A stretch of 64,000 nucleotides of DNA, from contig JACROC010000007.1 of NCBI GenBank assembly GCA_016214655.1, forward strand, positions 130,647 through 194,646. The letters are read 5' to 3'. Each line of letters opens with the position of its first letter. Positions within the stretch are counted from its first letter, which is position 1. This DNA is from Candidatus Harrisonbacteria bacterium (GTDB lineage Bacteria; Patescibacteriota; Minisyncoccia; UBA6257; 02-FULL-45-10c). Below are positions 12,344 through 60,192 of the stretch, one piece after another. The position numbers and the translations under genes are program-made. Under the pieces are notes generated by a model that was not told the origin of the DNA, ran no database searches, and saw only the letters and a list, made by a program, of their open reading frames with translations.

Positions 12344-12372
12344 AAATATCCGCCTTGGCGGATATTTTTATT
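12341..12372. terminator. Bidirectional terminator
   Basis: Hairpin atatccgccttggcggatat flanked by an A-run and T-run, between convergent genes. Confidence 0.6.
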
Positions 12373-13591
12373 GAACAAGAGAACTGAGAATTTTCTTTAG
12401 GCCGTTGTAAGAGGTGCTGATTATTAGTTTGTCACCAGACCAGGCAAAGTTGAGTCCGGCGCCTTTTTTGGGATAAGTCAGGTAGCGGGTAGTTGCACCG
12501 TTTGCTTGCCCTTCTTTAAATCCGGCAGCCGGTGTTCCGGGCGAGGTGAGGAAAAGATTAACCAGGTTAGGAGAAGATTCTAATGAGGAAATTACGGCTT
12601 GCACTTCAGATTGGTTGGTTCCTAATCTAAGTCTTAATATGTAGGCCGGCCATATGCCATTGGCATCATAATAAAGCGCAGTAGTAAAATCTTCATCAAA
12701 ATTACTGGCTACGATTCCAGGTGTCAGTTCCGGCAATAATAAAGATAACGTCATTGAGGCTGGTATTTGTCCGTCGGCATCGCTTAAGGTAACCTCCGTT
12801 AGTGATCCGGATGGCAGAGATTTTAAGGCTTCTTGTCGTAAGGCGGCTGTTAAAGAATTTAAGTCAACATTAGCTAGGGATGCCGGTGAAATTGAGTCAG
12901 AAGTTTTCAGGAAAGTCTGGTGCGGTTTTAATGTTGGAGTTGGCTGAGGGACTGGTTCGGTAATTGGCAGTGATTCTTCGATTGGTTCTGGGGTGCCTTC
13001 TGGAATGGTAGCAATCGGAATTTCGGTAACAGGTGGTTGCTCGGTTACTGTTTTTGGCGCCGATGCTGGTCCCCCAAACAGGAACGGGAAAATGTAGAAA
13101 TATCCCAGAAAACCGAATCCGGCTATGACTAAAGCTGAACTGGACCATACCAATATTTTTTTAATTCCTCCTTTTTTGGATTCTTCTTCAATAATTGGCG
13201 GCGCGCCATAAGCTTTTAGTTCTTCTATGCGCGGGAGTTCGGTTCTTTGCGGCTCTCCGAATTTTGCCGAGGGGATTCTCGGCGGCATAGGCGGCAGAGG
13301 CGGAGGAGCGGCTGGCACCTGATACATTTCTTTTTTGAGTTCCGGCGGAGTAAATGGTTTGGGAGCAACATAAGTCCCGCCACTTTCTTTAAGCGATTCA
13401 AGGTCTGATGTCATAGTGCGAAGGACAATTTCTGGTGGCGGAGGCGGCAGTGGTTTTTGGCGCTCCGGTGGTGGCGGAGGCGGTGGTGAAGGCGGCATAG
13501 GAGGAATGGGCCGCGGAGGCGCTGCGGGCTCGGTCGGTTCTGAAGGAAAACTAGCCGGCGGAGTCAATTGTTTTTCATCGGGATCCATTTT
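12368..13591 (-). CDS. Proline-rich membrane-anchored hypothetical protein
   Basis: N-terminal poly-Pro tracts (PPRPIPPMPPSPPPPPPP), one TM helix, Ser/Thr/Pro-rich extracellular region. Start at MDPDEK; an upstream in-frame M at 13642 is also possible. Confidence 0.5.
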   Translation of the reverse strand, partial: KMDPDEKQLTPPASFPSEPTEPAAPPRPIPPMPPSPPPPPPPERQKPLPPPPPEIVLRTMTSDLESLKESGGTYVAPKPFTPPELKKEMYQVPAAPPPLPPMPPRIPSAKFGEPQRTELPRIEELKAYGAPPIIEEESKKGGIKKILVWSSSALVIAGFGFLGYFYIFPFLFGGPASAPKTVTEQPPVTEIPIATIPEGTPEPIEESLPITEPVPQPTPTLKPHQTFLKTSDSISPASLANVDLNSLTAALRQEALKSLPSGSLTEVTLSDADGQIPASMTLSLLLPELTPGIVASNFDEDFTTALYYDANGIWPAYILRLRLGTNQSEVQAVISSLESSPNLVNLFLTSPGTPAAGFKEGQANGATTRYLTYPKKGAGLNFAWSGDKLIISTSYNGLKKILSSLVQ

Positions 13592-14101: not shown

Positions 14102-16210
14102 TTATTTACTTAATTGTTTGATTGAAAGACCAACTTTGCCGTTTTCCATTTTTACGATTTTTGCCCTGACAAAATCACCTAATTTTAAGACATCTTCTAC
14201 CTTTTTGACGTAGCCGTCTTTTAATTCGGATACATGAATCATGCCGTCTTTGCCGGGACTGAATTCAACTATGGCTCCGAATTCTAAAATTTTTATCACC
14301 GTCCCCTCTACTATGTCGCCAACTTTATATTCTTTGGCGATTCCTAAAACCTGATCGTAAGCTTTTTGGGCCGTATCTTTATCTGTGGCGGTAATGAAAA
14401 CTCTGCCGTCATCTTCTATGTCTATTGAAGTTACGCCAGTGGCTTCAATTATTGCATTGATTACTTTGCCTCCCGGACCGATGACCTCGCCGATAAGTTC
14501 CGGATTAATCTGCAGACTAAGAATTCTCGGAGCAAAGGCGGAAAGTTCAGCTCTTGGTTCTGGTAAAGCTTTAACTATAGTTTCTAAAATGTGCAACCGA
14601 GCTTCTTTGGCTTGAGCCAGGGTTTTGCTGAGCATTTCAGGGGTGACGCCAAGAATTTTTACATCCATTTGGATAGCGGTGACGCCATTTTTAGTGCCGG
14701 CCGCTTTAAAATCCATATCGCCGTGGTGGTCTTCCGGTCCTTGGATATCGGTCAGAACTTTAAAATCCTCCCCCTTTTTATCTAATATCAATCCCATGGC
14801 AATTCCGGCCGCCGGTCCTTTAATCGGCACTCCGGCGTCCATTAAGGATAAGCTGCCGGCGCAAACCGATGCCATTGAAGATGAGCCGTTAGACGATAAA
14901 ATTTCGGAAACTAATCTGATGGTGTACGGAAATTTATCTTGCGTGGGTATCAGGGCGCGCAGAGCTTTTTCTGCCAATGCGCCATGGCCGATTTCTCTTC
15001 TGCCAGGCCCCCTCATTGCGCCGACTTCTCCGGTAGAAAATGGCGGGAAATTATAGTGGAGCATAAACCGGCGCTTGCCGGAAAATTCAATAGTATCTAC
15101 TAACTGTTGGTCGCCTGGGGCGCCAAGAGTGGTAAGCGCCAGGGATTGGGTATTGCCGCGGACAAAGAGCGCTGAGCCGTGGACTCGTTTTAACAACCCC
15201 ACTTCGGCATAAAGATCCCGGACTTGATTTAGTTTGCGGCCATCCGGGCGTTTTTCTTCCGCAAGGATTTTTTCATGGAGTAATTCGTCAATTTCTTTAT
15301 CAAAAAGAGTTTCAGCACCGGCAATGTCTTTTTCCGAGTAATCTTTTTCAGCTAGAGCAGTCTTCATTTTACCCTTTAAGGATTCCAGATTTTCTTGCCT
15401 TTCTACCTTGGTTTGGGTATAGAGCGCAGACTCCAGTTTATTTTTCAAAAATTCTTTTACAAATTTTACGATTTCCTGATTGGGTTCAGCTAAATCAACT
15501 TTTTCTTTTTCTTTGCCAGTTTCTTTAATCATATTTTTTTGGAAATTTACCAGGCTAGCAATTTCTTTTTGCGCCATTTCAAAAGCGGCTACTACATCTT
15601 TTTCATTGGCTTCATCTCCGCCAAGTTCAACCATGTTGATCCGGCTGTTAGTGCCGGCAATTAAAGTTTCAAATTCTATTTCTTTATCTTTGAACTCGCT
15701 GGTTTTTGGATTAAGAAGCAGAGCTGGATCATTTTTCAATTTTACTATTTTTACTCCTGCCACCGGACCGTTCCAGGGGATAGAAGAAATCGCCAGCGCA
15801 GCGGAACTGGACAGCAGGCTGATAAAATCTAAATCATTTTCGCCGTCAAAAGATAGGACAGTTATTACCACTTGAACTTCCCTTCTGGTTGCCTGATTAA
15901 ATAATGGCCGTATAGTCCGGTCAACAATGCGGCCGGTCAGAATCGCCTCATCTGAAGACTTTCCTTCACGGCGCATAAAGCGGCTCCCGAGGATTTTCCC
16001 GGCCGCATAAAATTTTTCTTCATAGTTGACCATCAGCGGAAAATAATCTCCATCTTTATCTTCTTTGCTCATGACTGCGGTTGCAAGGACGGTGGTGTCT
16101 CCATAAGTTCCGATCACGGCGGCATTGGCCTGTTCGGCAATGCGGGAAACTTCCAAAGTCAGCGGTTTGCCAGCGAATTCCATTTTAAATTGTTTTCTTT
16201 GTAAATCCAT
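14102..16210 (-). CDS. pnp: Polyribonucleotide nucleotidyltransferase (PNPase)
   Basis: Two RNase PH-like domains, KH and C-terminal S1 domain. Classical rpsO-pnp arrangement. Confidence 0.9.
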   Translation of the reverse strand: MDLQRKQFKMEFAGKPLTLEVSRIAEQANAAVIGTYGDTTVLATAVMSKEDKDGDYFPLMVNYEEKFYAAGKILGSRFMRREGKSSDEAILTGRIVDRTIRPLFNQATRREVQVVITVLSFDGENDLDFISLLSSSAALAISSIPWNGPVAGVKIVKLKNDPALLLNPKTSEFKDKEIEFETLIAGTNSRINMVELGGDEANEKDVVAAFEMAQKEIASLVNFQKNMIKETGKEKEKVDLAEPNQEIVKFVKEFLKNKLESALYTQTKVERQENLESLKGKMKTALAEKDYSEKDIAGAETLFDKEIDELLHEKILAEEKRPDGRKLNQVRDLYAEVGLLKRVHGSALFVRGNTQSLALTTLGAPGDQQLVDTIEFSGKRRFMLHYNFPPFSTGEVGAMRGPGRREIGHGALAEKALRALIPTQDKFPYTIRLVSEILSSNGSSSMASVCAGSLSLMDAGVPIKGPAAGIAMGLILDKKGEDFKVLTDIQGPEDHHGDMDFKAAGTKNGVTAIQMDVKILGVTPEMLSKTLAQAKEARLHILETIVKALPEPRAELSAFAPRILSLQINPELIGEVIGPGGKVINAIIEATGVTSIDIEDDGRVFITATDKDTAQKAYDQVLGIAKEYKVGDIVEGTVIKILEFGAIVEFSPGKDGMIHVSELKDGYVKKVEDVLKLGDFVRAKIVKMENGKVGLSIKQLSK

Positions 16211-16318
16211 AAACTATGATACTAATATACTAATTCTACTAATGATACGAATAATACTAATTCTTTTTTATATTCGTATGATTGGTATCATTCGCATGCA
16301 TTCGTATATTGGTATCGC
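16205..16318 (-). repeat. AT-rich roughly 105-nt intergenic repeat, copy 1 (immediately upstream of pnp)
   Basis: Its reverse complement matches the copies at 46665-46760 and 56889-56992 (gcgataccaatatac.aatgcatgcgaatgatac ... attcgtatcattagta.aatt.gtatattagtatcatag). Contains internal direct sub-repeats ataccaata and attcgtat. Confidence 0.8.
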
Positions 16319-22704: not shown

Positions 22705-24015
22705 TTATTTCCCTCGTTGCATTAATTCGGTGACCTGTTTTTCTCCTTGTGATAATGCCTCCAGTGGTTTTAATTTGCCGGATACCACTGCCCCGATCAT
22801 TCCGGAAAAGATTTGGTCTATTGGTTCTTTATCTATGCGCGGCCAGGATTTGGCGGACAGAGCTTGTTTTACAAAAACTCCCAGTTCTGGATGATTTGCG
22901 TATTTTTGAATTAGAGATCGGAGCGCCGGCGGATTATCAGAGGCAATAAGATAATCTTCAGCCGCTTTTTCATAAGTAGTCAAAAATAGTACCAGATTCC
23001 AGGCCCAATCTGGATTTTGGCTGTTGTTAGTTACGGCCAGTCCCCAATAATCCGGATAGTTCACCGCTTTTTCGGTAGTAGAAGGCTGCGGCATAGCGGC
23101 TACCCGGAAATTTAAAAATGGATTTTTGGCCAGGATAGTTTTTCTTTGGGAAGCATAATTGAAAATCATCGCTAGGTTGCCCTTGGCAAAGCTGTTCAAT
23201 GAATATTCCTGATCATCGTTCCAGGTATAAGCCAGATCCTTGGAGTTGCTGAATTTAGTATAGAAATTCAAGCCGTCTAAACCGGCGTTGCGTCCCTCAA
23301 CATTGCCAGTGAAAGTTGCCTCGGTAAATTCTTCATTGGTCATTTTAGTTCCGGCTTGTAAGAGAAGAAGCATCAGCAGGTCCGAAGCTTTATCCATGGA
23401 ATTATTTGAACCGCCAATGGCTGCGGCCGGTTTGACCAGGTTTCCAAGGGAGTCCAGGCGCCTTAATTTATCAACGATATTCTGAAAATCCAGCCAATCC
23501 TGCGGTTCCAGCGCTATGCCATTTTTATCAAAAATGTCTCTGTTATAAAATAGCGCCAAGGTATCTATATATAATGGAAGCGCGTATATTTTCCCCAATG
23601 AGGAAAAATCCTCTTTTATAACTCCCGGAAATAGGTTATCTAGATCGATGACGGAAATTTGATCTTCTTTGGCTGGAATAATTTTGTCAGAATGTTTTGG
23701 CAGCCAGGAGCTGTGAAATGAGACAATATCCGGACCTTTTTTGGTGGCGAGGGCGTTAATTAGGTCGATTTCCAGGGTTTCGGGATCTACTTTTTTGTAA
23801 TCAACTGTGATATTGGGCTGAAATTGCTTATAAAGTTTGAAATTATTTTCAAACCAGCTTGGGTCATCAACCCCCCAAATAGTTAAAGTAATTCTGGGCG
23901 GCGCTTCTGGAATCACCTTAAGTCCCGGGATAATGCCGGTGAAAACTCCGACAAAAAATAAAACTACAACGAGAACGGCGGCTATAACTACAAGTTGCGG
24001 GCGGGAAAGTTCCAT
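22705..24015 (-). CDS. Extracellular solute-binding protein (ABC-type SBP family 1, MalE-like), membrane-anchored
   Basis: N-terminal TM anchor and sugar-type SBP fold features. No permease or ATPase genes adjacent. Confidence 0.6.
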   Translation of the reverse strand: MELSRPQLVVIAAVLVVVLFFVGVFTGIIPGLKVIPEAPPRITLTIWGVDDPSWFENNFKLYKQFQPNITVDYKKVDPETLEIDLINALATKKGPDIVSFHSSWLPKHSDKIIPAKEDQISVIDLDNLFPGVIKEDFSSLGKIYALPLYIDTLALFYNRDIFDKNGIALEPQDWLDFQNIVDKLRRLDSLGNLVKPAAAIGGSNNSMDKASDLLMLLLLQAGTKMTNEEFTEATFTGNVEGRNAGLDGLNFYTKFSNSKDLAYTWNDDQEYSLNSFAKGNLAMIFNYASQRKTILAKNPFLNFRVAAMPQPSTTEKAVNYPDYWGLAVTNNSQNPDWAWNLVLFLTTYEKAAEDYLIASDNPPALRSLIQKYANHPELGVFVKQALSAKSWPRIDKEPIDQIFSGMIGAVVSGKLKPLEALSQGEKQVTELMQRGK

Positions 24016-40013: not shown

Positions 40014-41366
40014 TTAAAAACTGAAAACTAAAGAGGTAGCAATCTGATTGATGTTGGTTTGGCGCGCGTTATCAACTGGAGGAACGTTAATGGTCCAATA
40101 AGAATATTCGGTTTTTAAGATTAAATTGTTATTAATTGGGAAATTCAGGCCGCCGGTGTATTTATCAATTTTGGTAGTAATTTGGTTTCCTTGATTGGGA
40201 AATGCGCTTATTGGCAGGCCCGTTTTTGGTTCGGCATTTCTTGAAAAAATTAGTTTTGGGCCGGAGCGTTCTATCCGGTTAAAGGCCAGAATGCCAAGTA
40301 ATTTTTTACCATTTCCTTTTACTTGCCAAATCGGAAAAGAAGATTGAAAATAAAATCCACGATTAATTTCTATCTTACTCGGAAGATTATCCGTATTTTG
40401 GGCGAAATCCACATTATCATTGGCATCGGCTTGTGCAAGACTAAAATCGGTTTCGCTGTAGACATATTCTCCGCTGAAACTGAAATTTTTATATTGGAAC
40501 AATAAATCAGTTCCGCAAATTCTATAATCTTGGCCGAAGACAGCCTCTTCCAAATCATAGCGTCCATACATGCCGGATAATCCGACTCTGACTCCTTTTA
40601 ATTCGAGCCCCTCTTCAACTGGGAAAGGAATTTTTAAATCACCCAAGGCAAAGGCTATCCTACCGCCTGGAGCTTTGTTGTTGTTGTTGTCGGCAAGGTT
40701 ATTGTTTAGATGTCCGAAGTCCATATTGACACCGCTGATCGGCCGGCCTTGCACGTTAAGCTTTCCAGTATAGGGAAAGGTCCGCAATCGATTGCCGACT
40801 TCGCCAAATCCATTTACCAAATAAGCGGTTAGTTCGCTTGGCAGCCATCGATATGAATTTGGATAGTAGCTTGCCCTTGCTCCGATATCAGTATAACCAG
40901 CGCTGAATGGCGGACGGGGAGAATTTAGCCTAAGAACAAGGTCTAAGTTGTCGGGAGAGGCATAAATTAGCGGCTTGGTGATGGATAGAAATTTATCTGC
41001 TCGATAGAGTTCATTATAGTGGCCGAAGGGAACCAGAAATTTACCCAATTCTAACTTTAATTTCTCATCCCAATAACGGAAATTAGTCGAGAAGCGATAG
41101 AGATTGATTTGTCCCTGGGAGGCAGTTGGAATTTGAAATTCCAGTAAGAAGGGATATTTTTCGCTGATTTTTCCATCCATTCCGAAAAATATATCAGACA
41201 GATAAACTTGTGTCTGGATTTGATATTCATAGCCGGGCCTTCTGGGACCGACGGTTCGGAAGTTAAGGGACATGCTGCCGTTAAGATTGAGATTCTTGGT
41301 GATTTCTTTGGGGTGGGCGAGGGGGGTGATTTGCAGTAAGGACAGAAGCAGAAAAGTCTTTTTCAT
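40014..41366 (-). CDS. Putative outer-membrane beta-barrel (porin-like) protein
   Basis: Signal peptide, alternating amphipathic pattern, C-terminal ...TSLVFSF ending in Phe (beta-barrel C-terminal signature). AAAGGAGGAAAA RBS. Confidence 0.4.
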   Translation of the reverse strand: MKKTFLLLSLLQITPLAHPKEITKNLNLNGSMSLNFRTVGPRRPGYEYQIQTQVYLSDIFFGMDGKISEKYPFLLEFQIPTASQGQINLYRFSTNFRYWDEKLKLELGKFLVPFGHYNELYRADKFLSITKPLIYASPDNLDLVLRLNSPRPPFSAGYTDIGARASYYPNSYRWLPSELTAYLVNGFGEVGNRLRTFPYTGKLNVQGRPISGVNMDFGHLNNNLADNNNNKAPGGRIAFALGDLKIPFPVEEGLELKGVRVGLSGMYGRYDLEEAVFGQDYRICGTDLLFQYKNFSFSGEYVYSETDFSLAQADANDNVDFAQNTDNLPSKIEINRGFYFQSSFPIWQVKGNGKKLLGILAFNRIERSGPKLIFSRNAEPKTGLPISAFPNQGNQITTKIDKYTGGLNFPINNNLILKTEYSYWTINVPPVDNARQTNINQIATSLVFSF

Positions 41367-46664: not shown

Positions 46665-46760
46665 CGCGATACCAATATACTAATGCATGCGAATGATACC
46701 AATAATACAAATTCGCATTTATTCGTATCATTAGTACAATTCGTATATTAGTATCATAGT
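46665..46760 (+). repeat. AT-rich intergenic repeat, copy 2 (immediately upstream of nusA; has a central deletion relative to copies 1 and 3)
   Basis: cgcgataccaatatactaatgcatgcgaatgataccaata...attcgtatcattagtacaattcgtatattagtatcatag ends 3 nt before the nusA ATG. Confidence 0.8.
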
Positions 46761-46763
46761 TTT

Positions 46764-47996
46764 ATGTTTAATTTAAAAGAATTAAAAAAAGCCGTGGATC
46801 AGATTGCTCAGGAGAAGGGCGTGGACGCGCAGAAAGTTTTTGAAGCCCTGGAAGCTTCTATTGCTGCCGCTTATAAAAAGGAATACTGCCAGAGGGGCGA
46901 GGTGGTTAAATCAAAATTTGACCAGAAAACCGGCGCGTTAGAGTTTTGGAAGATAAAAACTGTTGTAGATGAAACTACGGTGAGAATCGTGGAAGAGGGA
47001 GAGGTCGTCGAAGGCGAGCCTCGTTTAGAAATTTCTGGGCGGGAGGGGGCTTTATCAGAAGAGGGCCTTTTACCACGTTATAATCCGGACCGCCATTTAT
47101 TTTTGGCGGAAGCGCGCGTTATCAAACCGGATGTACAACTAGGCGAAGAGTTGATATTTCCGCTGGAGACCCATGAAGATTTTGGCCGGATTGCGGCCCA
47201 GACCGCTAAACAGGTCATTCTTCAAAAATTACGCGAGGTTGAAAGGAATTCTATTATTAATGAATTTCAAAACAAGGTTGGCGAGATTATCAGTGGTGTT
47301 GTTCAAAGATATGATCGAGGGAATGTTTTTGTGGATTTAGGCCGGGCTACCGGAATCGTGTTTTATAATGAATCCATTCCCGGTGAACATTATTCTACCG
47401 GATCCAGGATGCGTTTTTATATATTAGCTGTTCAGGAAGAATCTCGGGTTCCAGGTATCATTTTATCTCGTTCCCATCCTAAATTTGTCAGCCGGCTTTT
47501 TGAATTAGAAGTCCCGGAAATCAGCGACGGAGTTGTTGAGATTAAAACCATTGCCAGAGAACCAGGAAGTAGGACTAAAATTGCGGTTACTTCTAAAGTA
47601 GAGGGAATTGATCCGGTCGGATCTTGTGTTGGCCAGAGAGGGACTAGGGTTATGGCGGTCAGCAATGAATTGGGTCAGGAAAAAATTGATATTATTCAAT
47701 GGTCTGAAGACACGGAAAAATTCATTTCCAATTCGCTTTCTCCGGCTAGGGTTACACGAGTTGAAATTTCACCGAGACGGGAAGCTAAGGTTTTTGTCCC
47801 GGATGACCAATTGAGTTTGGCTATTGGAAAGGGTGGTCAGAATGTCCGTTTGGCTGCTAAGCTTACCAGCTGGAAAATAGATGTCCGTTCGCAGGCGAAG
47901 CCGGATGAGGTGCAGGAAGGCGGTATAGCGGCGGCTTTGGAAGAATCCGTTTCTGCTCAAATTGCTGCGGATGAAGAAAAAAAGTCGGAAGAATAG
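46764..47996 (+). CDS. nusA: Transcription termination/antitermination factor NusA
   Basis: N-terminal domain, S1 domain, two KH domains (GxxGxxV, GKGGQNVRLA). Confidence 0.85.
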   Translation: MFNLKELKKAVDQIAQEKGVDAQKVFEALEASIAAAYKKEYCQRGEVVKSKFDQKTGALEFWKIKTVVDETTVRIVEEGEVVEGEPRLEISGREGALSEEGLLPRYNPDRHLFLAEARVIKPDVQLGEELIFPLETHEDFGRIAAQTAKQVILQKLREVERNSIINEFQNKVGEIISGVVQRYDRGNVFVDLGRATGIVFYNESIPGEHYSTGSRMRFYILAVQEESRVPGIILSRSHPKFVSRLFELEVPEISDGVVEIKTIAREPGSRTKIAVTSKVEGIDPVGSCVGQRGTRVMAVSNELGQEKIDIIQWSEDTEKFISNSLSPARVTRVEISPRREAKVFVPDDQLSLAIGKGGQNVRLAAKLTSWKIDVRSQAKPDEVQEGGIAAALEESVSAQIAADEEKKSEE

Positions 47997-54014: not shown

Positions 54015-54248
54015 ATGCCTAATCGGAGACGGTTGAACACGGGACAGAAAGTACGGGAAATGAGATTCGCCTTGGGCGGCAGAAGGGCCGTAATCGAGGT
54101 TATGGAATCTGGATCTGTTTCCAGCTTAAAACGCTGGGAGAGGCGTGAATGCTCCCCGATTTCTGCTCATGTAAAGGTGGTTGGCGATGCCTATGACATG
54201 TGGCTATTGATGAAAAAAGCGGTTCGTAAGAGATTGCAGAGACACTGA
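54015..54248 (+). CDS. Small basic GC-rich hypothetical protein (77 aa)
   Basis: Perfect SD AAAGGAGGGG 5 nt before the ATG. Hairpin terminator ctgaccatcttggtcag then a T-run follows. GC is clearly above its flanks. Confidence 0.45.
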   Translation: MPNRRRLNTGQKVREMRFALGGRRAVIEVMESGSVSSLKRWERRECSPISAHVKVVGDAYDMWLLMKKAVRKRLQRH

Positions 54249-54296
54249 CCATCTTGGTCAGTTTTTTGTTTTTACGAGATGTGTTATAGTTATTCT

Positions 54297-54359
54297 ATGA
54301 AATTAGTTTTTGCTATTATCACTACCACAACTACCCGATTTCCTGCTGGGGAGTTTTAG
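54297..54359 (+). promoter_or_regulatory. thrL: thr-operon-type leader peptide ORF (MKLVFAIITTTTTRFPAGEF)
   Basis: 20-codon ORF with five consecutive Thr codons and two Ile codons, located about 95 nt upstream of thrA. The classical Thr/Ile attenuation control region. Confidence 0.6.
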
Positions 54360-54384
54360 TGGTTTATCAAAAATAAAGACACTA

Positions 54385-54415
54385 AACCGGCCTCAACGGG
54401 GTCGGTTTTCATTTT
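54385..54415 (+). terminator. Attenuator terminator between the leader peptide and thrA
   Basis: Stem aaccggcc/ggtcggtt (one G-U pair), loop tcaacgg, followed by ttttcatttt. Confidence 0.55.
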
Positions 54416-54452: not shown

Positions 54453-56888
54453 ATGAAAATAACTAAAGTTCTTAAATTCGGAGGTTCGTCGGTGGGCACG
54501 CCAAAGATGATCAAGGGGGTTGGTGAAATTGTGAAAGCTGCATCTAAAAGAGATAGAGTGGCGGTCGTGGTGTCAGCTTTTCAGGGAGTTACCGATCAGC
54601 TTTTAAAATGCGTGCGCTTGACCGCGAAAAATGATAAACGGTTATTCGATGAGCTAAAAAATTTGAAAGAGCGCCACTTAAAAGCAGTTAAATTATTAGT
54701 TCGTAAACCTAAATATTTGCGAAATAATGTTCTAGCGCACGTTGAATCATTGTTTATTGAGCTTGTTGCGGTATTAGAAAAAATTGCCAAAGAAAAAGGA
54801 GTTTCCAATAAAAATTTGGACTGGGTAGCGAGTTTCGGTGAGCGGCTTTCGGCGTATATTATTGCGGCGTCGACGAAGAATGCATATTTCGTAGATGCTC
54901 GCGAATTGGTTAGGACTGATAATAATTTTGTGAATGCGGCTGTGGATTTTAATGCAACCAACCGTAAAATTATACATTTTTTCACTGAGAAACAGAGAGG
55001 CAAAGAAACGAAAAATAAAATCCCGATTATTACCGGATTTTTAGGTTCCACCAGTAAAAGAGAAATCACTACACTTGGACGAGGGGGTTCGGACTATTCC
55101 GCTGCGATTTTTGGTGCTGCGCTTGGTGTAAAAGTAGTGGAAATCTGGACTGATGTAGATGGGGTGATGAGCGCGGACCCTCGCCTGGTAAAACGGGCAG
55201 TGGTGCTCTCGCAGATAAGTTACGAAGAAGCGATCGAGATGGCTTATTTCGGCGCCAAAGTGATTCATCCGGCGACCATGCTCCCAGCGATTAAAAAAGG
55301 AATACCGATTTTGATTAAAAATACATTTAATCCCATTACGCCCGGAACTTGGATCCAGAAAAAAATGGTGCTCGAGCCATTTGTAAAAGGCATCACCGCT
55401 ATTGACGACATTGTTTTAGTTAATATAGGGGGCGTAAGTTTGGGCGGAATCCCAGGGAGCGCCGCCAGGGTATTTGAGGCAACTGCGCGGGCAAAAGCAA
55501 ACGTAATTCTAATTTCTCAGGCTTCTTCAGAATATACTATTTGTTTTGCGCTTAAATCGGCAGAGCTTTCGGCCGCGCTTAAAGTATTGCGGGAGGAGTT
55601 TAGGAAAGAAATAAAATCCGGCCAGGTAAGTATTTCAACCGTACCTTCGCAAGCTATTATTGCGCTGGTTGGCGATGGCATGCGCGGCGTGCCGGGCATT
55701 GCCGGGAAATTATTCAAAGCGATAGGTGATAATGGGGTGAATATTTCCGCAATTGCGCAGGGCGGATCGGAACGGAATATTTCTTTTGTTGTGGATTTGG
55801 CAGATAAGGCGAAAGCATTAAATGTGGCACATGATGAATTTTTCCTAGGCGCAACCAAAAATATTTTTTTGATCGGCACCGGTAATATTGGCGGTACCCT
55901 GCTTGATCAAATTCACAATCTATCGAAGTCCGACTTCAATAGATTGAGGGTATGCGGGATTATTAACGCTTTTAATATGCTTACCAGTGAATCGGGTATT
56001 AATTTAGGCGGTTGGCAAAAGAAATTGGAAAAGGGTGAAAAGCCTGATTTTGAGAAATGGCTCAATTGGGCTAAAGAATTGCCACTTGGCAATAAAGTCT
56101 TTGTGGATTGTACTGCCAGTGATGGGGTTGCCAGAAAATACATTGAAATTGCCGAGGTGGGATTTAACATTGTGACTCCGAATAAGAAATTTAATGTCCG
56201 GCCGATGAAGGAATATAAAAAATTGCGGGAAGTAATGGCAAAAAATAAAAATCAGTTTTTGTATGAAACTAATGTCGGCGCCGCGCTTCCGATTATCGCG
56301 CCGCTTCAGGATTTATTAAAAACAGGTGATAGGATTACAAAAATCGAAGGAGTGTTTTCCGGAACATTAAGCTATATTTTTAATAATTTTGACGGAACTA
56401 AACCATTTAGTAAGGTGGTGGAGGAAGCAAAAAAACTTGGCTACACCGAGCCGGATCCGCGGGAAGATTTAAGTGGGCAGGACGTTGGAAGGAAGTTATT
56501 GGTTCTAGCGCGGGAGATTGGTTACGAGTTGGAATTTAAGGATATTGAAATTGAAAATCTGGTACCGGCAGCGCTTCAACGCGTTAAAGTGCCGGGAGAA
56601 TTTTTGAAGCGATTAAAGGAATTTGACGGATATTTCAAGAAACTTTTAGAAAAAGCATATTCGCAAAATAAGGTTCTGAGATATGTGGCGCGACTAGAAA
56701 GAGGTAGGGCGGTTGCGTCGCTTCAGGCGGTGCCGTTAGATAATCCACTTGCAAGCAATCGCGGCGCAGATAATATATTTGCCTTTTGGACTAAGAGATA
56801 TAAGGAAAGGCCTTTAGTCGTACAAGGACCGGGAGCGGGAAGAGAAGTAACTGCGGCTGGAGTGTTGGCGGATATATTACGAATATAA
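54453..56888 (+). CDS. thrA: Bifunctional aspartokinase / homoserine dehydrogenase
   Basis: N-terminal aspartokinase (KFGGSSVG), ACT domains, C-terminal homoserine dehydrogenase (GTGNIGG Rossmann motif). 811 aa. Confidence 0.85.
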   Translation: MKITKVLKFGGSSVGTPKMIKGVGEIVKAASKRDRVAVVVSAFQGVTDQLLKCVRLTAKNDKRLFDELKNLKERHLKAVKLLVRKPKYLRNNVLAHVESLFIELVAVLEKIAKEKGVSNKNLDWVASFGERLSAYIIAASTKNAYFVDARELVRTDNNFVNAAVDFNATNRKIIHFFTEKQRGKETKNKIPIITGFLGSTSKREITTLGRGGSDYSAAIFGAALGVKVVEIWTDVDGVMSADPRLVKRAVVLSQISYEEAIEMAYFGAKVIHPATMLPAIKKGIPILIKNTFNPITPGTWIQKKMVLEPFVKGITAIDDIVLVNIGGVSLGGIPGSAARVFEATARAKANVILISQASSEYTICFALKSAELSAALKVLREEFRKEIKSGQVSISTVPSQAIIALVGDGMRGVPGIAGKLFKAIGDNGVNISAIAQGGSERNISFVVDLADKAKALNVAHDEFFLGATKNIFLIGTGNIGGTLLDQIHNLSKSDFNRLRVCGIINAFNMLTSESGINLGGWQKKLEKGEKPDFEKWLNWAKELPLGNKVFVDCTASDGVARKYIEIAEVGFNIVTPNKKFNVRPMKEYKKLREVMAKNKNQFLYETNVGAALPIIAPLQDLLKTGDRITKIEGVFSGTLSYIFNNFDGTKPFSKVVEEAKKLGYTEPDPREDLSGQDVGRKLLVLAREIGYELEFKDIEIENLVPAALQRVKVPGEFLKRLKEFDGYFKKLLEKAYSQNKVLRYVARLERGRAVASLQAVPLDNPLASNRGADNIFAFWTKRYKERPLVVQGPGAGREVTAAGVLADILRI

Positions 56889-56992
56889 CGCGATACCAAT
56901 ATACTAATGCATGCGAATGATACTAATTATGCGAATATTTTAAAATTAGTATTATTCGTATCATTAGTACAATTCGTATATTAGTATCATAG
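56889..56992 (+). repeat. AT-rich intergenic repeat, copy 3 (full-length, downstream of thrA)
   Basis: Near-identical to the reverse complement of copy 1 and to copy 2 over about 100 nt. Confidence 0.8.
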
Positions 56993-57053
56993 TTAGCGTC
57001 AGCGATAAAAAAGAAAAGCGCCCCGATGGTTAATCGAGGCGCCGGTGATGAAG

Positions 57054-57203
57054 TTATCTCTTTTTGAGTTCTTCCAAGATTCCCTTTAGGAGACTGTTAG
57101 TTTCATTTAAGGGCTCTAGAAAAAATACGCACAAGATCAATACTGCTAAGATTGGGCTAAACATTATTCCCAATCCCATGAGGGCTAGACAGGCTGTATA
57201 CAT
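57054..57203 (-). CDS. Small hydrophobic protein (49 aa)
   Basis: MYTACLALMGLGIMFSPILAVLILCVFFLEPLNETNSLLKGILEELKKR. AAAGGAGGA RBS 6 nt upstream. Below the ORF-table length cutoff. Confidence 0.45.
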   Translation of the reverse strand: MYTACLALMGLGIMFSPILAVLILCVFFLEPLNETNSLLKGILEELKKR

Positions 57204-57263
57204 TTGATCCTCCTTTGGCGAAAACTTTACGATTTAAATATAATATAGCATATAATTATAAAT

Positions 57264-58331
57264 ATGTCAAGTATAAATAAAAAATTGAGAGTTGGGATTT
57301 TGGGTGCCACCGGAATGGTTGGCCAGCGGTTTATCTCGCTTTTGGAAAATCATCCGTGGTTTGAAGTGGTGTGTTTAGCAGCTTCTCCGCAATCAGCTGG
57401 AAAATCGTATCAAGAAGCAGCTGGGGGGCGATGGAGTATGAAAAACCCTATTCCCGAAAAAAATCGTGATATGAAATTACAAGCCGTAGAAGAAGATTTT
57501 AATGAAATTATAAAAAAGGTTGATTTAGTTTTTTCCGCGATTGATATGGATAAAGAAAAAATTAAAGAAATTGAAGCGCGATACGCTGCGGCGGGTGCGG
57601 CAGTTATTTCCAATAATTCTGCGCATCGGTGGACCGAGGACGTGCCAATGGTGATACCCGAAATTAATGCTCATCATTTATCTTTGATCGACATTCAAAG
57701 GAAAAATCGCAGCTGGAAAAGTGGATTGCTAGTGGTAAAGCCGAATTGTTCTTTGCAGTCATATCTTCCAGTGGTGTATGCGCTTAAAGAATTTAAGCCG
57801 AAATATGTTTTGGTCACAACTTTACAGGCAATATCCGGCGCTGGTAAAACTTTTGAATCATGGCCGGAAATGGTAGATAACTGCACCCCTTTTATAAAAG
57901 GCGAGGAGGAAAAGACAGAAAAGGAACCGATGAAAATTTGGGGCGAAGATTGCCCGGTTATTTCCGCAACTTGCATCCGGGTTGCGGCCTCAGATGGCCA
58001 TATGGCTAGCGTTTCAGTGGAGTTTGAGAATAAACCAACGCTGGAGCAGATACGTAATGCGATTGATAATTTCTCAAATCCGCTTAACGAGTTAAATCTT
58101 CCTTCCGCGCCCGAAAAATTCATTAAATATTTTACCGAAGATGATCGTCCGCAGACTAAGTTAGACCGCGATTATGCTGGCGGTATGGGAATTACTTGCG
58201 GGAGATTTCGGGAAGATGGCAAATATGGGTGGAAATTTGTTGCACTTTCCCATAATACGATCCGTGGCGCAGCTGGTGGAGCGGTGCTGATTGCGGAATT
58301 GCTTCATAAAAAAGGATATTTAAATATTTAG
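57264..58331 (+). CDS. asd: Aspartate-semialdehyde dehydrogenase
   Basis: N-terminal NAD(P)-binding LGATGMVGQRF and the active-site Cys region. Confidence 0.85.
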   Translation: MSSINKKLRVGILGATGMVGQRFISLLENHPWFEVVCLAASPQSAGKSYQEAAGGRWSMKNPIPEKNRDMKLQAVEEDFNEIIKKVDLVFSAIDMDKEKIKEIEARYAAAGAAVISNNSAHRWTEDVPMVIPEINAHHLSLIDIQRKNRSWKSGLLVVKPNCSLQSYLPVVYALKEFKPKYVLVTTLQAISGAGKTFESWPEMVDNCTPFIKGEEEKTEKEPMKIWGEDCPVISATCIRVAASDGHMASVSVEFENKPTLEQIRNAIDNFSNPLNELNLPSAPEKFIKYFTEDDRPQTKLDRDYAGGMGITCGRFREDGKYGWKFVALSHNTIRGAAGGAVLIAELLHKKGYLNI

Positions 58332-58378: not shown

Positions 58379-58876
58379 ATGAAGGGTGTTACCTTAATTG
58401 GTATGCCAGGCTCGGGTAAGTCTACGGTCGGTAAATTACTTGCTAGCAGGCTTAATTTGAATTTTGTTGACTTAGACCTTTTGATTAAAGAAAAAACCGG
58501 TAAAACTCATCAGGAAATCTTGGAAAAAAGCGGAGATAAAGAATTACTAAAATTAGAAGAGCAATATACGCTTCAGTTAAACTTTGCCAATACCGTATTT
58601 TCTCCCGGCGGGAGCATTATTTATTCTCCGGCGGCGATGGCAAAATTGATCCGAGAAACAAATATTTTTTATTTAAATTTGCCGTTGGAAGAAATCAAGA
58701 AGCGTTTAGGAGAAAATATCGATTATCGCGGAATTGTCGGTCTGAAAGAAAAAGGCATTGAGGGGCTTTTTGAAGAACGCGTGCCGGCGTACCAATCTTG
58801 CGCGCATTATACGCTGGATTGCCACGGTTTTGATGAAAAAAGAATAGCGGAAGGAATTTTATGGCTGCTCAATTAA
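58379..58876 (+). CDS. aroK: Shikimate kinase
   Basis: P-loop GMPGSGKSTVGKLLA and a small NMP-kinase fold. Confidence 0.7.
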   Translation: MKGVTLIGMPGSGKSTVGKLLASRLNLNFVDLDLLIKEKTGKTHQEILEKSGDKELLKLEEQYTLQLNFANTVFSPGGSIIYSPAAMAKLIRETNIFYLNLPLEEIKKRLGENIDYRGIVGLKEKGIEGLFEERVPAYQSCAHYTLDCHGFDEKRIAEGILWLLN

Positions 58877-60192
58877 AGTTTTATAGTACAAATAAAAAAT
58901 CGCCTCGTGCTGATTTTAAACAAGTACTTATGCAAGGACTCGCCTCAGATGGCGGTCTTTTTGTGCCGGAGTTTTTCCCAAAATTGGAAAAGGGGTTTCT
59001 AGCCAATATCCGGGAAAAAGAATTTTGGGAGATTGCCTTAGAAATCAGCCAAAAGTTTATTCAGGATATTCCGCCAAAAGAATTAAAAAAAATCATCAAA
59101 GACTCTTTTAATTTTGAGGTACCACTGAAGCAATTAGATAATAATCTGTATATTTTAGAGTTATTTCATGGGCCAACATTAGCTTTTAAAGATTTTGGAG
59201 CGCGGTTTATGTCCCGGCTCATGAATTATTATTTGCGCCGCGAAAAGGAAAAATTAAACATCATCGTCGCTACTTCCGGGGATACCGGAAGTGCAGTTGC
59301 GCAAGGATTTTACGGATTATCTAATATTAAAGTTTTTATATTATACCCAAGCAAGCGTATTACCCCGCTGCAAGAAAAACAAATGACTACGCTCGGTAAA
59401 AATATTATTGCATTAGAAGTAAAAGGAAATTTTGATGATTGCCAAAAATTAGCTAAGCAAATACTTACTGATGGAGAATTAAAAAAGAAAATTAATTTGT
59501 CCTCTGCCAATTCCATTAATTTCGGCCGCCTACTCCCCCAATCTTTTTATTATTTTTACGGTTTTGCTCAATATGGTGGTCATTGCAAGACTTTAAAATT
59601 AAGGTCTTGCGATGACCTTATATTTGCTGTTCCAAGTGGGAATTTTGGTAATTTAACTGCCGGCTTGATGGCAAAACGCATGGGGCTCCCGGTGAGACAA
59701 TTTATAGCCGCCACTAATGCAAATGATATTGTGCCGCGTTATCTTAAGACTGGCAAATTTGTTTCACGCGTTTCCCGCAAAACAATTTCTAATGCTATGG
59801 ACGTTGGAAATCCGAGTAATTTTGTGAGGATGTTGGAAATGTATAGTCATGATTATAAAAAGATGGCTAAGGATATTATCGGGGTAAGTATTGGCGATCA
59901 ACAAACCCGTGAAACAATCAAAAATGTTTATCGCAAAATCGGATATATATTAGATCCGCATACTGCAGTTGGTGTTGCGGCGGCGCAAAAAAGTAATGTT
60001 TCACAGCCCATTATTGTTTTGAGTACTGCCCACCCGGCTAAATTTAAGGAGATAGTTGAACCCGTTATCGGCAAGAAAATTCTGTTGCCCGATCAACTAA
60101 AAGCGGTGATGAATAAAAAGAAAAGATCTATCATCATTAAAAATGATTTAGCTTCTGTGAGAAAGATTATTTTGGAGAAAAATTCGGCTTGA
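58861..60192 (+). CDS. thrC: Threonine synthase
   Basis: PLP-lysine region GPTLAFKDFG and the PLP-fold II layout. Start overlaps the aroK end. Confidence 0.8.
   Translation: MAAQLKFYSTNKKSPRADFKQVLMQGLASDGGLFVPEFFPKLEKGFLANIREKEFWEIALEISQKFIQDIPPKELKKIIKDSFNFEVPLKQLDNNLYILELFHGPTLAFKDFGARFMSRLMNYYLRREKEKLNIIVATSGDTGSAVAQGFYGLSNIKVFILYPSKRITPLQEKQMTTLGKNIIALEVKGNFDDCQKLAKQILTDGELKKKINLSSANSINFGRLLPQSFYYFYGFAQYGGHCKTLKLRSCDDLIFAVPSGNFGNLTAGLMAKRMGLPVRQFIAATNANDIVPRYLKTGKFVSRVSRKTISNAMDVGNPSNFVRMLEMYSHDYKKMAKDIIGVSIGDQQTRETIKNVYRKIGYILDPHTAVGVAAAQKSNVSQPIIVLSTAHPAKFKEIVEPVIGKKILLPDQLKAVMNKKKRSIIIKNDLASVRKIILEKNSA

Follow-up and report, generated by a model that had tools for sequence, protein, structure and literature searches.

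A putative threonine attenuator with a predicted leaderless leader peptide upstream of thrA in Patescibacteria

Attenuation by leader peptides belongs to the textbook biology of Proteobacteria, and cases are also known from Actinobacteria and a few further groups. The usual picture of the candidate phyla radiation (CPR, or Patescibacteria) is one of bacteria without amino-acid biosynthesis and with much of their regulation missing. A stretch of Candidatus Harrisonbacteria DNA (64 kb of contig JACROC010000007.1, referred to below as the window) raises the question of whether such a bacterium can sense its own supply of charged tRNA-Thr. Here, a short open reading frame (ORF) rich in threonine codons, followed by a hairpin, precedes thrA, the gene for the bifunctional aspartate kinase/homoserine dehydrogenase I. 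We conclude that this element is very probably a ribosome-mediated leader-peptide transcription attenuator that tunes thrA to the supply of charged tRNA-Thr. The evidence consists of sequence elements, conservation, alternative pairings, covariation and footprint geometry, from which we infer the transcription start site (TSS), leader translation, actual termination and the response to threonine. Feature coordinates are collected in Table 1, and individual thrA loci are identified by L-numbers where they need to be told apart.

The leader ORF and its conservation

The leader ORF of the window opens with an ATG at 54297, closes with a TAG at 54357-54359 and encodes, in 20 codons, the peptide MKLVFAIITTTTTRFPAGEF. 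As an earlier note on this DNA had described, five consecutive Thr codons directly follow two Ile codons (54315-54320). The note had placed the element about 95 nucleotides (nt) upstream of thrA, and the leader stop indeed lies 93 nt before the thrA ATG (54453). The stem-loop and U-tract that it had seen in between proved larger than described: the hairpin spans 54384-54408 with 11 pairs, written as AAACCGGCCTC-AAC-GGGGTCGGTTT or AAACCGGCCUC-AAC-GGGGUCGGUUU, and is followed by the U-tract UCAUUUU (TCATTTT in the DNA, given as UUUUCAUUUU), which extends to 54415. This hairpin is not the end of the preceding gene, because the upstream neighbor of the leader, an ORF of 77 amino acids (aa) at 54015-54248 on the plus strand, has its own terminator at 54244-54262. 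Runs of at least five ACN codons occur once per strand in the window, against about 0.11 expected from composition; taken alone, this rarity is only suggestive. The other run (~40676-40690, minus strand) falls inside the span of a long minus-strand ORF at 40014-41366. What marks the leader as non-random is its conservation in 21 other related thrA loci.

These loci come from contig look-ups for individual proteins and from a scan of metagenomes that used a CPR-specific segment of ThrA. A scan of genome contigs with the single ThrA protein recovered no relatives, and a contig scan with the full CPR ThrA alignment picked up universal aspartokinase motifs and was saturated by distant homologs, yielding L001 as the sole close relative. 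The window ThrA is 100% identical to the NCBI protein of a Candidatus Harrisonbacteria metagenome-assembled genome (MAG; Patescibacteria, Parcubacteria group). Around 50 homologs share 58-75% identity with it and belong to Patescibacteria or to unlabelled metagenome contigs, and the next group, at about 51% identity, is that of Bacteroidota/Ignavibacteriales. When the 400 nt upstream of thrA were scanned for Thr-run ORFs in 167 loci, 22 distinct leaders emerged in the Patescibacteria ThrA clade, upstream of thrA genes whose products are 49-74% identical to the window ThrA. These leaders span 12-25 codons, of which 5-10 specify Thr (examples are MIKFIFTTTTFTTRLIAEEF, MKFLVTTTTTTTTQRSADGC, METQSLTIVTGTTTTTTRL, MRFSTTTTTTTTTTQNDLRGC, MNKVIFTTTTTTTSLQPRS and MLKIISTIATTITTTTTTLSPSLRS). 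Synteny is kept among the relatives, in the order clpP, tyrS, leader or small ORF, thrA, asd, SKI-type kinase and thrC.

The pattern of change within the leaders indicates what is being conserved. Across 155 Thr codons, ACT is used 65 times, ACA 46, ACC 31 and ACG 13; the invariance of AC together with the use of all four ACN codons points to selection on the codon and not on the nucleotide. Neither the peptide C-terminus nor the position of the stop is constant, whereas the RNA at this place (for example CCGAGGUUGUAGUUAAAG) has been conserved, and one subclade stops earlier (…TSS*, …TSP*) yet retains the following RNA CCGAGGUUGUAGUUAAAG. This combination argues for selection on the Thr codons and the RNA and not on the peptide product. 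Ile codons, which the earlier note had taken as part of the sensing signal, are sporadic, with about nine of the 22 leaders lacking Ile in or beside the Thr run. Ile sensing is thus unsupported and dual Ile/Thr sensing was rejected on this ground, leaving Thr as the conserved signal.

The 77-aa product of the small upstream ORF, encoded between tyrS and the leader, is Arg/Lys-rich, has no Pfam match and is recognizably conserved at the same position in L094. Small ORFs of 78-115 aa occupy this position in L081, L087 and L089, and the one in L089 gives weak HTH_23 hits.

Alternative RNA structures

The window leader can be divided into regions with alternative partners (Table 1). Its antiterminator combines the helices UGGGG:CCUCA and UUUAGUG:CACUAAA, with 5' arms at 54347-54351 and 54355-54361, respectively, and has a predicted energy of -13.5 kcal/mol against -13.3 kcal/mol for the terminator. 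Antiterminators were folded with region 1 masked, as by a ribosome stalled in the Thr run, and with the terminator 3' arm (region 4) left out. The window antiterminator emerges only when that arm is left out, which corresponds to the co-transcriptional order. Folded in this way, region 2 pairs with the terminator left arm and loop in all 22 leaders (mean z = -3.8 against shuffles), and in most of them this pairing is predicted to be about as stable as the terminator or more so. The earlier note had staked its proposal on a Thr-run ORF shared with relatives and on a possible mutually exclusive antiterminator, and both are found in the 22 distinct leaders. The full-length minimum free energy (MFE) fold combines the 1:2 hairpin with the terminator for 17 of the 22 leaders and is the antiterminator itself for the other five. 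The 1:2 hairpin joins the Thr codons with the segment around the stop; in a second subclade it is formed by ACAACUACAAC with GUUGUAGUU.

The two sides of the antiterminator covary. Terminator left arm and loop variants CCUCAAC, CCUCAGC, CCAUCAGC, CGCCAGC, CCCCAGU, CCCCGGCG and CCUCAAUCC are matched, in the same order, by the region 2 variants GCUGGGG, GCUGAGG, GCUGAUGG, GCUGGUG, ACUGGGG, CGUCGGGG and GGGUUGAGG. RNAalifold applied to regions 2-3 recovered the outer helix, with compensatory changes at four of six pairs. On the full-length MAFFT alignment A3 it predicted no structure, likely because subclades are misaligned and the alternative structures compete. In an unfitted MAFFT alignment, the named 15-pair structure has 75% of cells paired, compared with 31-51% when partners are slid; 10 pairs have changed on both sides, and the covariation score of 0.269 (shuffles, 0.194 ± 0.019) was reached by none of 500 shuffles. 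Realignment with a covariance model of the element (R1) raised the paired cells to 79%, and to 91% in the outer helix. An alignment-free comparison agrees: duplexes between cognate regions 2 and 3 average -12.95 kcal/mol, those between permuted partners -10.20 ± 0.58 kcal/mol, and none of 20,000 permutations reached the cognate value.

The position of the ORF relative to these structures is equally regular. The last Thr codon precedes the antiterminator 5' arm by a median of 9 nt. In all 22 leaders, the stop codon is found no more than 4 nt upstream and 16 nt downstream of the point where that arm begins. This is the geometry of a classical attenuator, in which a ribosome at the stop covers region 2 and a ribosome stalled in the Thr run frees it. 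The covariance model has a single match in the window, at the attenuator site, and among 93 related loci it matches known leaders only.

Does the hairpin act as a terminator? A translated small ORF might instead regulate thrA by way of Rho-dependent polarity, mRNA stability, or translational coupling or occlusion, routes of a kind proposed for some leaderless upstream ORFs (uORFs) of mycobacteria. Leaderless, Cys-rich uORFs of mycobacteria attenuate operonic expression (bioRxiv 10.1101/834739), the window U-tract is imperfect, and in six relatives (L001, L093, L097, L112, L117 and L154) only 6-14 nt separate the hairpin from the thrA ATG, so that there it could also occlude translation initiation. 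Elsewhere the start could not be masked in this manner, as the hairpin ends 44 nt from the thrA ATG in the window and up to 125 nt from it in other relatives. A GC-rich hairpin followed by a T-run is kept in nearly all 22 leaders despite differing stem sequences, and the covarying pairing is aimed at the terminator left arm and loop, which is the signature of terminator/antiterminator switching. We therefore regard regulation without an intrinsic terminator as improbable and retain transcription attenuation as the favored reading. The longest spacers between terminator and thrA differ among themselves: in L105 and L109 (~110-125 nt) an inserted segment carries a long inverted repeat (…gtcattgcgag…ctcgcaatgac…), and those of L106 and L110 (115 and 77 nt) are unlike it in sequence.

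Several observations weigh against transcription attenuation in the window or temper the statistics behind it. The window U-tract is interrupted. The window antiterminator has z = -1.38, with 20 of 200 shuffles folding equally well, and the 1:2 hairpin has z = -0.75; the outer antiterminator helix (-6.7 kcal/mol) is among the weakest of the family, ranking 18 of 21. With a stalled ribosome, the equilibrium fold of the whole leader retains a 9-bp terminator, so read-through must depend on the kinetic order of co-transcriptional folding, as in classical attenuators. The significance derived from shuffles is overstated because the tested sequences are related to one another. Finally, the leader is altogether absent from two close relatives, L094 (ThrA identity 74%) and L087 (70%), which indicates that the element is dispensable and evolutionarily labile. 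The hairpins of the window are individually non-significant (the fold of its whole leader has z = -2.35), and their support is comparative.

These weak fold statistics, and the second Thr run on the other strand, might suit a chance ORF without regulatory function that happens to lie beside an ordinary terminator or insulator hairpin. The separate terminator of the upstream gene already leaves the hairpin without an ordinary task there, and the covariance model finds only one site in the window. ORF, promoter spacing, terminator and antiterminator are moreover conserved and covarying across the 22 loci, which differ throughout in sequence and so are not assembly duplicates. Coincidence is essentially refuted by these comparative data and has, in our judgment, almost no claim left against a leader-peptide attenuator.

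Predicted leaderless start, proposed mechanism and downstream genes

A TATAGT box (54285-54290), preceded by TGT as an extended -10, ends exactly 6 nt before the leader ATG, in agreement with the earlier note, and inspection of the sequence finds no Shine-Dalgarno motif before that ATG. There is no good -35 element, since the T-run of the upstream terminator sits at that position, and a simple sigma-70 scan missed the promoter because the -35 is absent. Among the related loci, a TATnnT box ends 6-9 nt 5' of the leader ATG in 20 of 22; the box is mostly TGn-extended, and most of these promoters have a TTGAC -35 at 17 nt. The spacing supports what the earlier note had suggested, namely that the leader mRNA may be leaderless, with a start predicted from the -10 box. 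Of 41 other long ORFs in the window, nine or more likewise lack a Shine-Dalgarno motif and show a TATAAT-like box that ends 6-7 nt short of the ATG (examples in Table 1), and other window genes carry AAGGAGG. Leaderless initiation thus looks like a habit of the genome and not a peculiarity of the attenuator, and its apparent frequency elsewhere in the window accounts for the missing Shine-Dalgarno motif at the leader.

An ATG without a Shine-Dalgarno motif could also mean that the ORF is incidental and untranslated and that the RNA itself, or a bound factor, is the switch, as in a riboswitch, a T-box-like tRNA sensor or a protein-binding leader; a ligand or protein could in principle toggle the alternative hairpins. 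Predicted leaderless starts elsewhere in the window explain the missing motif without this assumption, and searches of the window and of 13 relatives gave no above-threshold hit to any Rfam family, T-box and riboswitch families included. The ACN codons are in frame with the ATG in all 22 leaders, in 20 of which the -10 box keeps its distance from that ATG, and an RNA-only or factor-binding switch predicts neither this codon periodicity nor the placement of the stop relative to region 2. Such a switch is accordingly most unlikely, and a translated leader peptide is the preferred reading.

The following mechanism is proposed for the leader-peptide attenuator. Transcription from the extended -10 would begin at, or 1 nt from, the AUG at 54297, and a ribosome would load at the 5' end of the transcript. 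When charged Thr-tRNA is plentiful, the ribosome would pass the five Thr codons and reach the UAG at 54357, which lies within region 2. With region 2 covered, regions 3 and 4 would pair, the terminator (54384-54408 and its U-tract) would form, and RNA polymerase would stop before thrA. When Thr-tRNA is scarce, the ribosome would stall at 54321-54335, masking region 1 and freeing region 2. The free region 2 would pair with region 3 once the latter is made, so that the terminator left arm is sequestered and transcription enters thrA. If the leader is not translated at all, the 1:2 hairpin and the 3:4 terminator would form together, and termination should again result.

The gene under this proposed control is thrA, whose product scores 946.5 bits against NCBIfam NF006959 (cut-off, 726). 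Downstream, a shikimate-kinase-fold protein is encoded between asd and thrC, an arrangement conserved across relatives. Among NCBIfam models, NF040667 for the Desulfovibrio-type homoserine kinase matches this protein best, with 132.8 bits against a cut-off of 197 that is not reached, and it is probably the homoserine kinase of the pathway rather than AroK. A homoserine kinase of the SKI type has been shown experimentally in Desulfovibrio vulgaris (PMC5764234). Together, thrA, asd, the SKI-type kinase gene and thrC cover the whole route from Asp to Thr. In the relatives, the attenuator heads the entire operon. In the window, thrA and asd are separated by a 375-nt insert (56889-57263) that is absent from relatives and contains a minus-strand ORF for a hydrophobic protein of 49 aa (57054-57203), with a strong promoter (TTGACA-17-TATATT, 57270-57242) and a terminator (57043-57017). 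In addition, asd has its own -10 box. Since this oppositely oriented small gene interrupts the thr operon, control by the attenuator is probably confined to thrA in this genome.

The two relatives without a leader keep its promoter: in L094 (~430-690) and L087 (~1240-1500), the same promoter directly abuts thrA. L094 has kept the small upstream ORF together with its terminator and the promoter (gagatgtggTAAATT), all immediately before thrA. This layout suggests a clean deletion of about 150 nt. A third arrangement is seen in L116 (~540-620; ThrA homolog at 50% identity), which keeps a region-2-like motif, AGGUUGUAGUU, and a terminator, cccgaccttagaggccgggattttt; no Thr-run ORF was found upstream of its thrA, and it may be a degenerate or re-purposed attenuator.

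The 21-nt repeat TCGTATATTAGTATCATAGTT is present in the window in three copies, where chance would give 0.01. Two of them stop 1-2 nt short of the ATGs of the genes at 14102-16210 (minus) and 46764-47996 (plus), as if the repeat were a portable leaderless promoter with the -10 box TATCAT. The third copy lies just 3' of thrA and has no ORF behind it.

Table 1. Positions of the leader elements, thr genes and other starts mentioned in the text (window coordinates)
Feature	Position	Strand	Details
Extended -10, TGT-TATAGT	54282-54290	+	Read from sequence; TSS predicted at or beside the A of ATG 54297
Leader-peptide ORF	54297-54359	+	MKLVFAIITTTTTRFPAGEF plus stop; no Shine-Dalgarno motif; predicted leaderless
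Regulatory codons	54321-54335	+	Five consecutive Thr codons (ACT ACC ACA ACT ACC), read from sequence
Region 1, 5' arm of 1:2 hairpin	54318-54336	+	Overlaps Thr codons; pairs with 54349-54363 (MFE)
Region 2	54345-54363	+	Pairs alternatively with region 1 or region 3; contains stop UAG 54357-54359
Region 3	54380-54397	+	CACUAAA 54380-54386 and CCUCA 54391-54395; alternatively, 54384-54394 is the terminator left arm
Intrinsic terminator (3:4), predicted	54384-54415	+	Stem 54384-54394 with 54398-54408; loop AAC; -13.3 kcal/mol
thrA	54453-56888	+	Bifunctional aspartate kinase/homoserine dehydrogenase I, 811 aa; NCBIfam NF006959
asd	57264-58331		Downstream of thrA
Shikimate-kinase-fold protein	58379-58876	+	165 aa; between asd and thrC; arrangement conserved across relatives
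thrC	58861-60192		Downstream of thrA
Leaderless-type start	12368-13588	-	TATAAT-like box before ATG
Leaderless-type start	17275		TATAAT-like box before ATG
Leaderless-type start	22705-24015	-	TATAAT-like box before ATG
Leaderless-type start	30715		TATAAT-like box before ATG
Leaderless-type start	41496		TATAAT-like box before ATG
Leaderless-type start, tyrS	52804		TATAAT-like box before ATG
Leaderless-type start, asd	57264		TATAAT-like box before ATG
Leaderless-type start	58379		TATAAT-like box before ATG
Repeat TCGTATATTAGTATCATAGTT	16212-16232	-	21-nt repeat
Repeat TCGTATATTAGTATCATAGTT	46741-46761	+	21-nt repeat
Repeat TCGTATATTAGTATCATAGTT	56974-56994	+	21-nt repeat

Relation to known attenuators and significance

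The closest functional parallel is thrL of E. coli, where a short Thr-rich leader ORF likewise stands ahead of thrA (aspartokinase I-homoserine dehydrogenase I). Both have four regions, with a 1:2 hairpin, a 2:3 antiterminator and a 3:4 intrinsic terminator, and a stop placed so that the ribosome masks region 2. The likeness to thrL drawn by the earlier note therefore stands for the architecture. It does not extend to the RNA family: the Rfam model RF00506 (Thr_leader) scores the window at 14.3 bits (E = 7.5) against a gathering threshold of 55, so that the window is not a member, and there is no detectable homology in sequence or structure. The hosts also differ, being Patescibacteria in one case and Gammaproteobacteria in the other. 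In E. coli, Thr and Ile codons are mixed in the thr leader, which also has a Shine-Dalgarno motif, whereas the leaders of Patescibacteria have no conserved Ile and are apparently leaderless.

Thr/Ile-rich leaders also precede thrA in Xanthomonadales/Lysobacterales (L018, L021, L025, L026, L028, L031, L035, L037, L038 and L044), an order reportedly included in the set of loci treated by Vitreschak and colleagues. They share with the Patescibacteria leaders a Thr-run ORF upstream of a bifunctional thrA and differ in their peptides (…TTTITT…RPVRPVVFA) and in their GC-rich RNA, which has no similarity. The covariance model R1 matches none of 77 distant thrA loci, these Xanthomonadales/Lysobacterales leaders included, which suggests an independent origin. 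No Rfam family reaches threshold in the Xanthomonadales Thr leaders tested either; this indicates that RF00506 is narrow and that its failure in the window says little about mechanism. Among the non-Patescibacteria leaders tested (L025, L026, L035, L037, L044 and L057), none attains an Rfam gathering score. The last of these, from a Bacteroidia MAG, is an unrelated Thr/Ile-run ORF (…CETTTTITTTP*, 2298-2393) upstream of thrA. For Gammaproteobacteria, thr attenuators have been predicted (Vitreschak et al. 2004, FEMS Microbiol Lett 234:357, as reported in PMC1262725). Co-inheritance of the attenuator with thrA from the nearest non-CPR homologs was also considered; in the one Ignavibacteriales locus examined there is no leader and thrA lies in an operon, 16 nt after another gene, and a single locus cannot settle the point. 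Taken together, the Patescibacteria element is probably a family separate from thrL that evolved independently.

Leaderless or short leader ORFs have counterparts in other phyla. To our knowledge, the mechanism of the mycobacterial uORFs is not clearly based on an intrinsic terminator. The mycobacterial polycysteine leaderless uORFs and the Corynebacterium ilvB leader control biosynthetic genes that lie downstream of them (bioRxiv 10.1101/834739; PMC11857589; PMC10272879). They resemble the present leaders in being short or, as predicted here, leaderless, and in their enrichment in codons for the amino acid of the pathway, and differ in phylum and in the amino acid sensed. A second counterpart is trpL of Sinorhizobium meliloti, a ribosome-dependent attenuator whose transcript starts at the ATG of the leader ORF (PMC7298713). 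It shares ribosome-dependent transcription attenuation with the proposed thr element, and its leaderless start with what is predicted for the latter, but it senses Trp, regulates trpE(G), belongs to Alphaproteobacteria and is unrelated in sequence.

In the literature searched, no paper joins a leader peptide or attenuator with Patescibacteria or the candidate phyla radiation. On balance, and with some reserve, we favor the view that the leaders described here are the first described family of ribosome-mediated attenuators in the CPR, with a leaderless leader peptide, independent of the proteobacterial thr leaders and readily lost. The understanding of attenuation itself is unchanged, since the mechanism is textbook; what is new is the lineage and a leader that is, as predicted from its promoter spacing, consistently leaderless. 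The compact element of about 120 nt and its covariance model can be used to annotate such leaders in metagenomes, and the element offers indirect evidence, at the level of sequence, for transcription-translation coupling and leaderless initiation in Patescibacteria. An attenuator before a full Asp-to-Thr operon would mean that one CPR lineage makes threonine and senses the charging of its own tRNA-Thr. If true, reduced-genome bacteria would retain autonomous control, through tRNA charging, of a complete threonine pathway, and they would also tightly couple ribosomes loaded at the 5' end to RNA polymerase.

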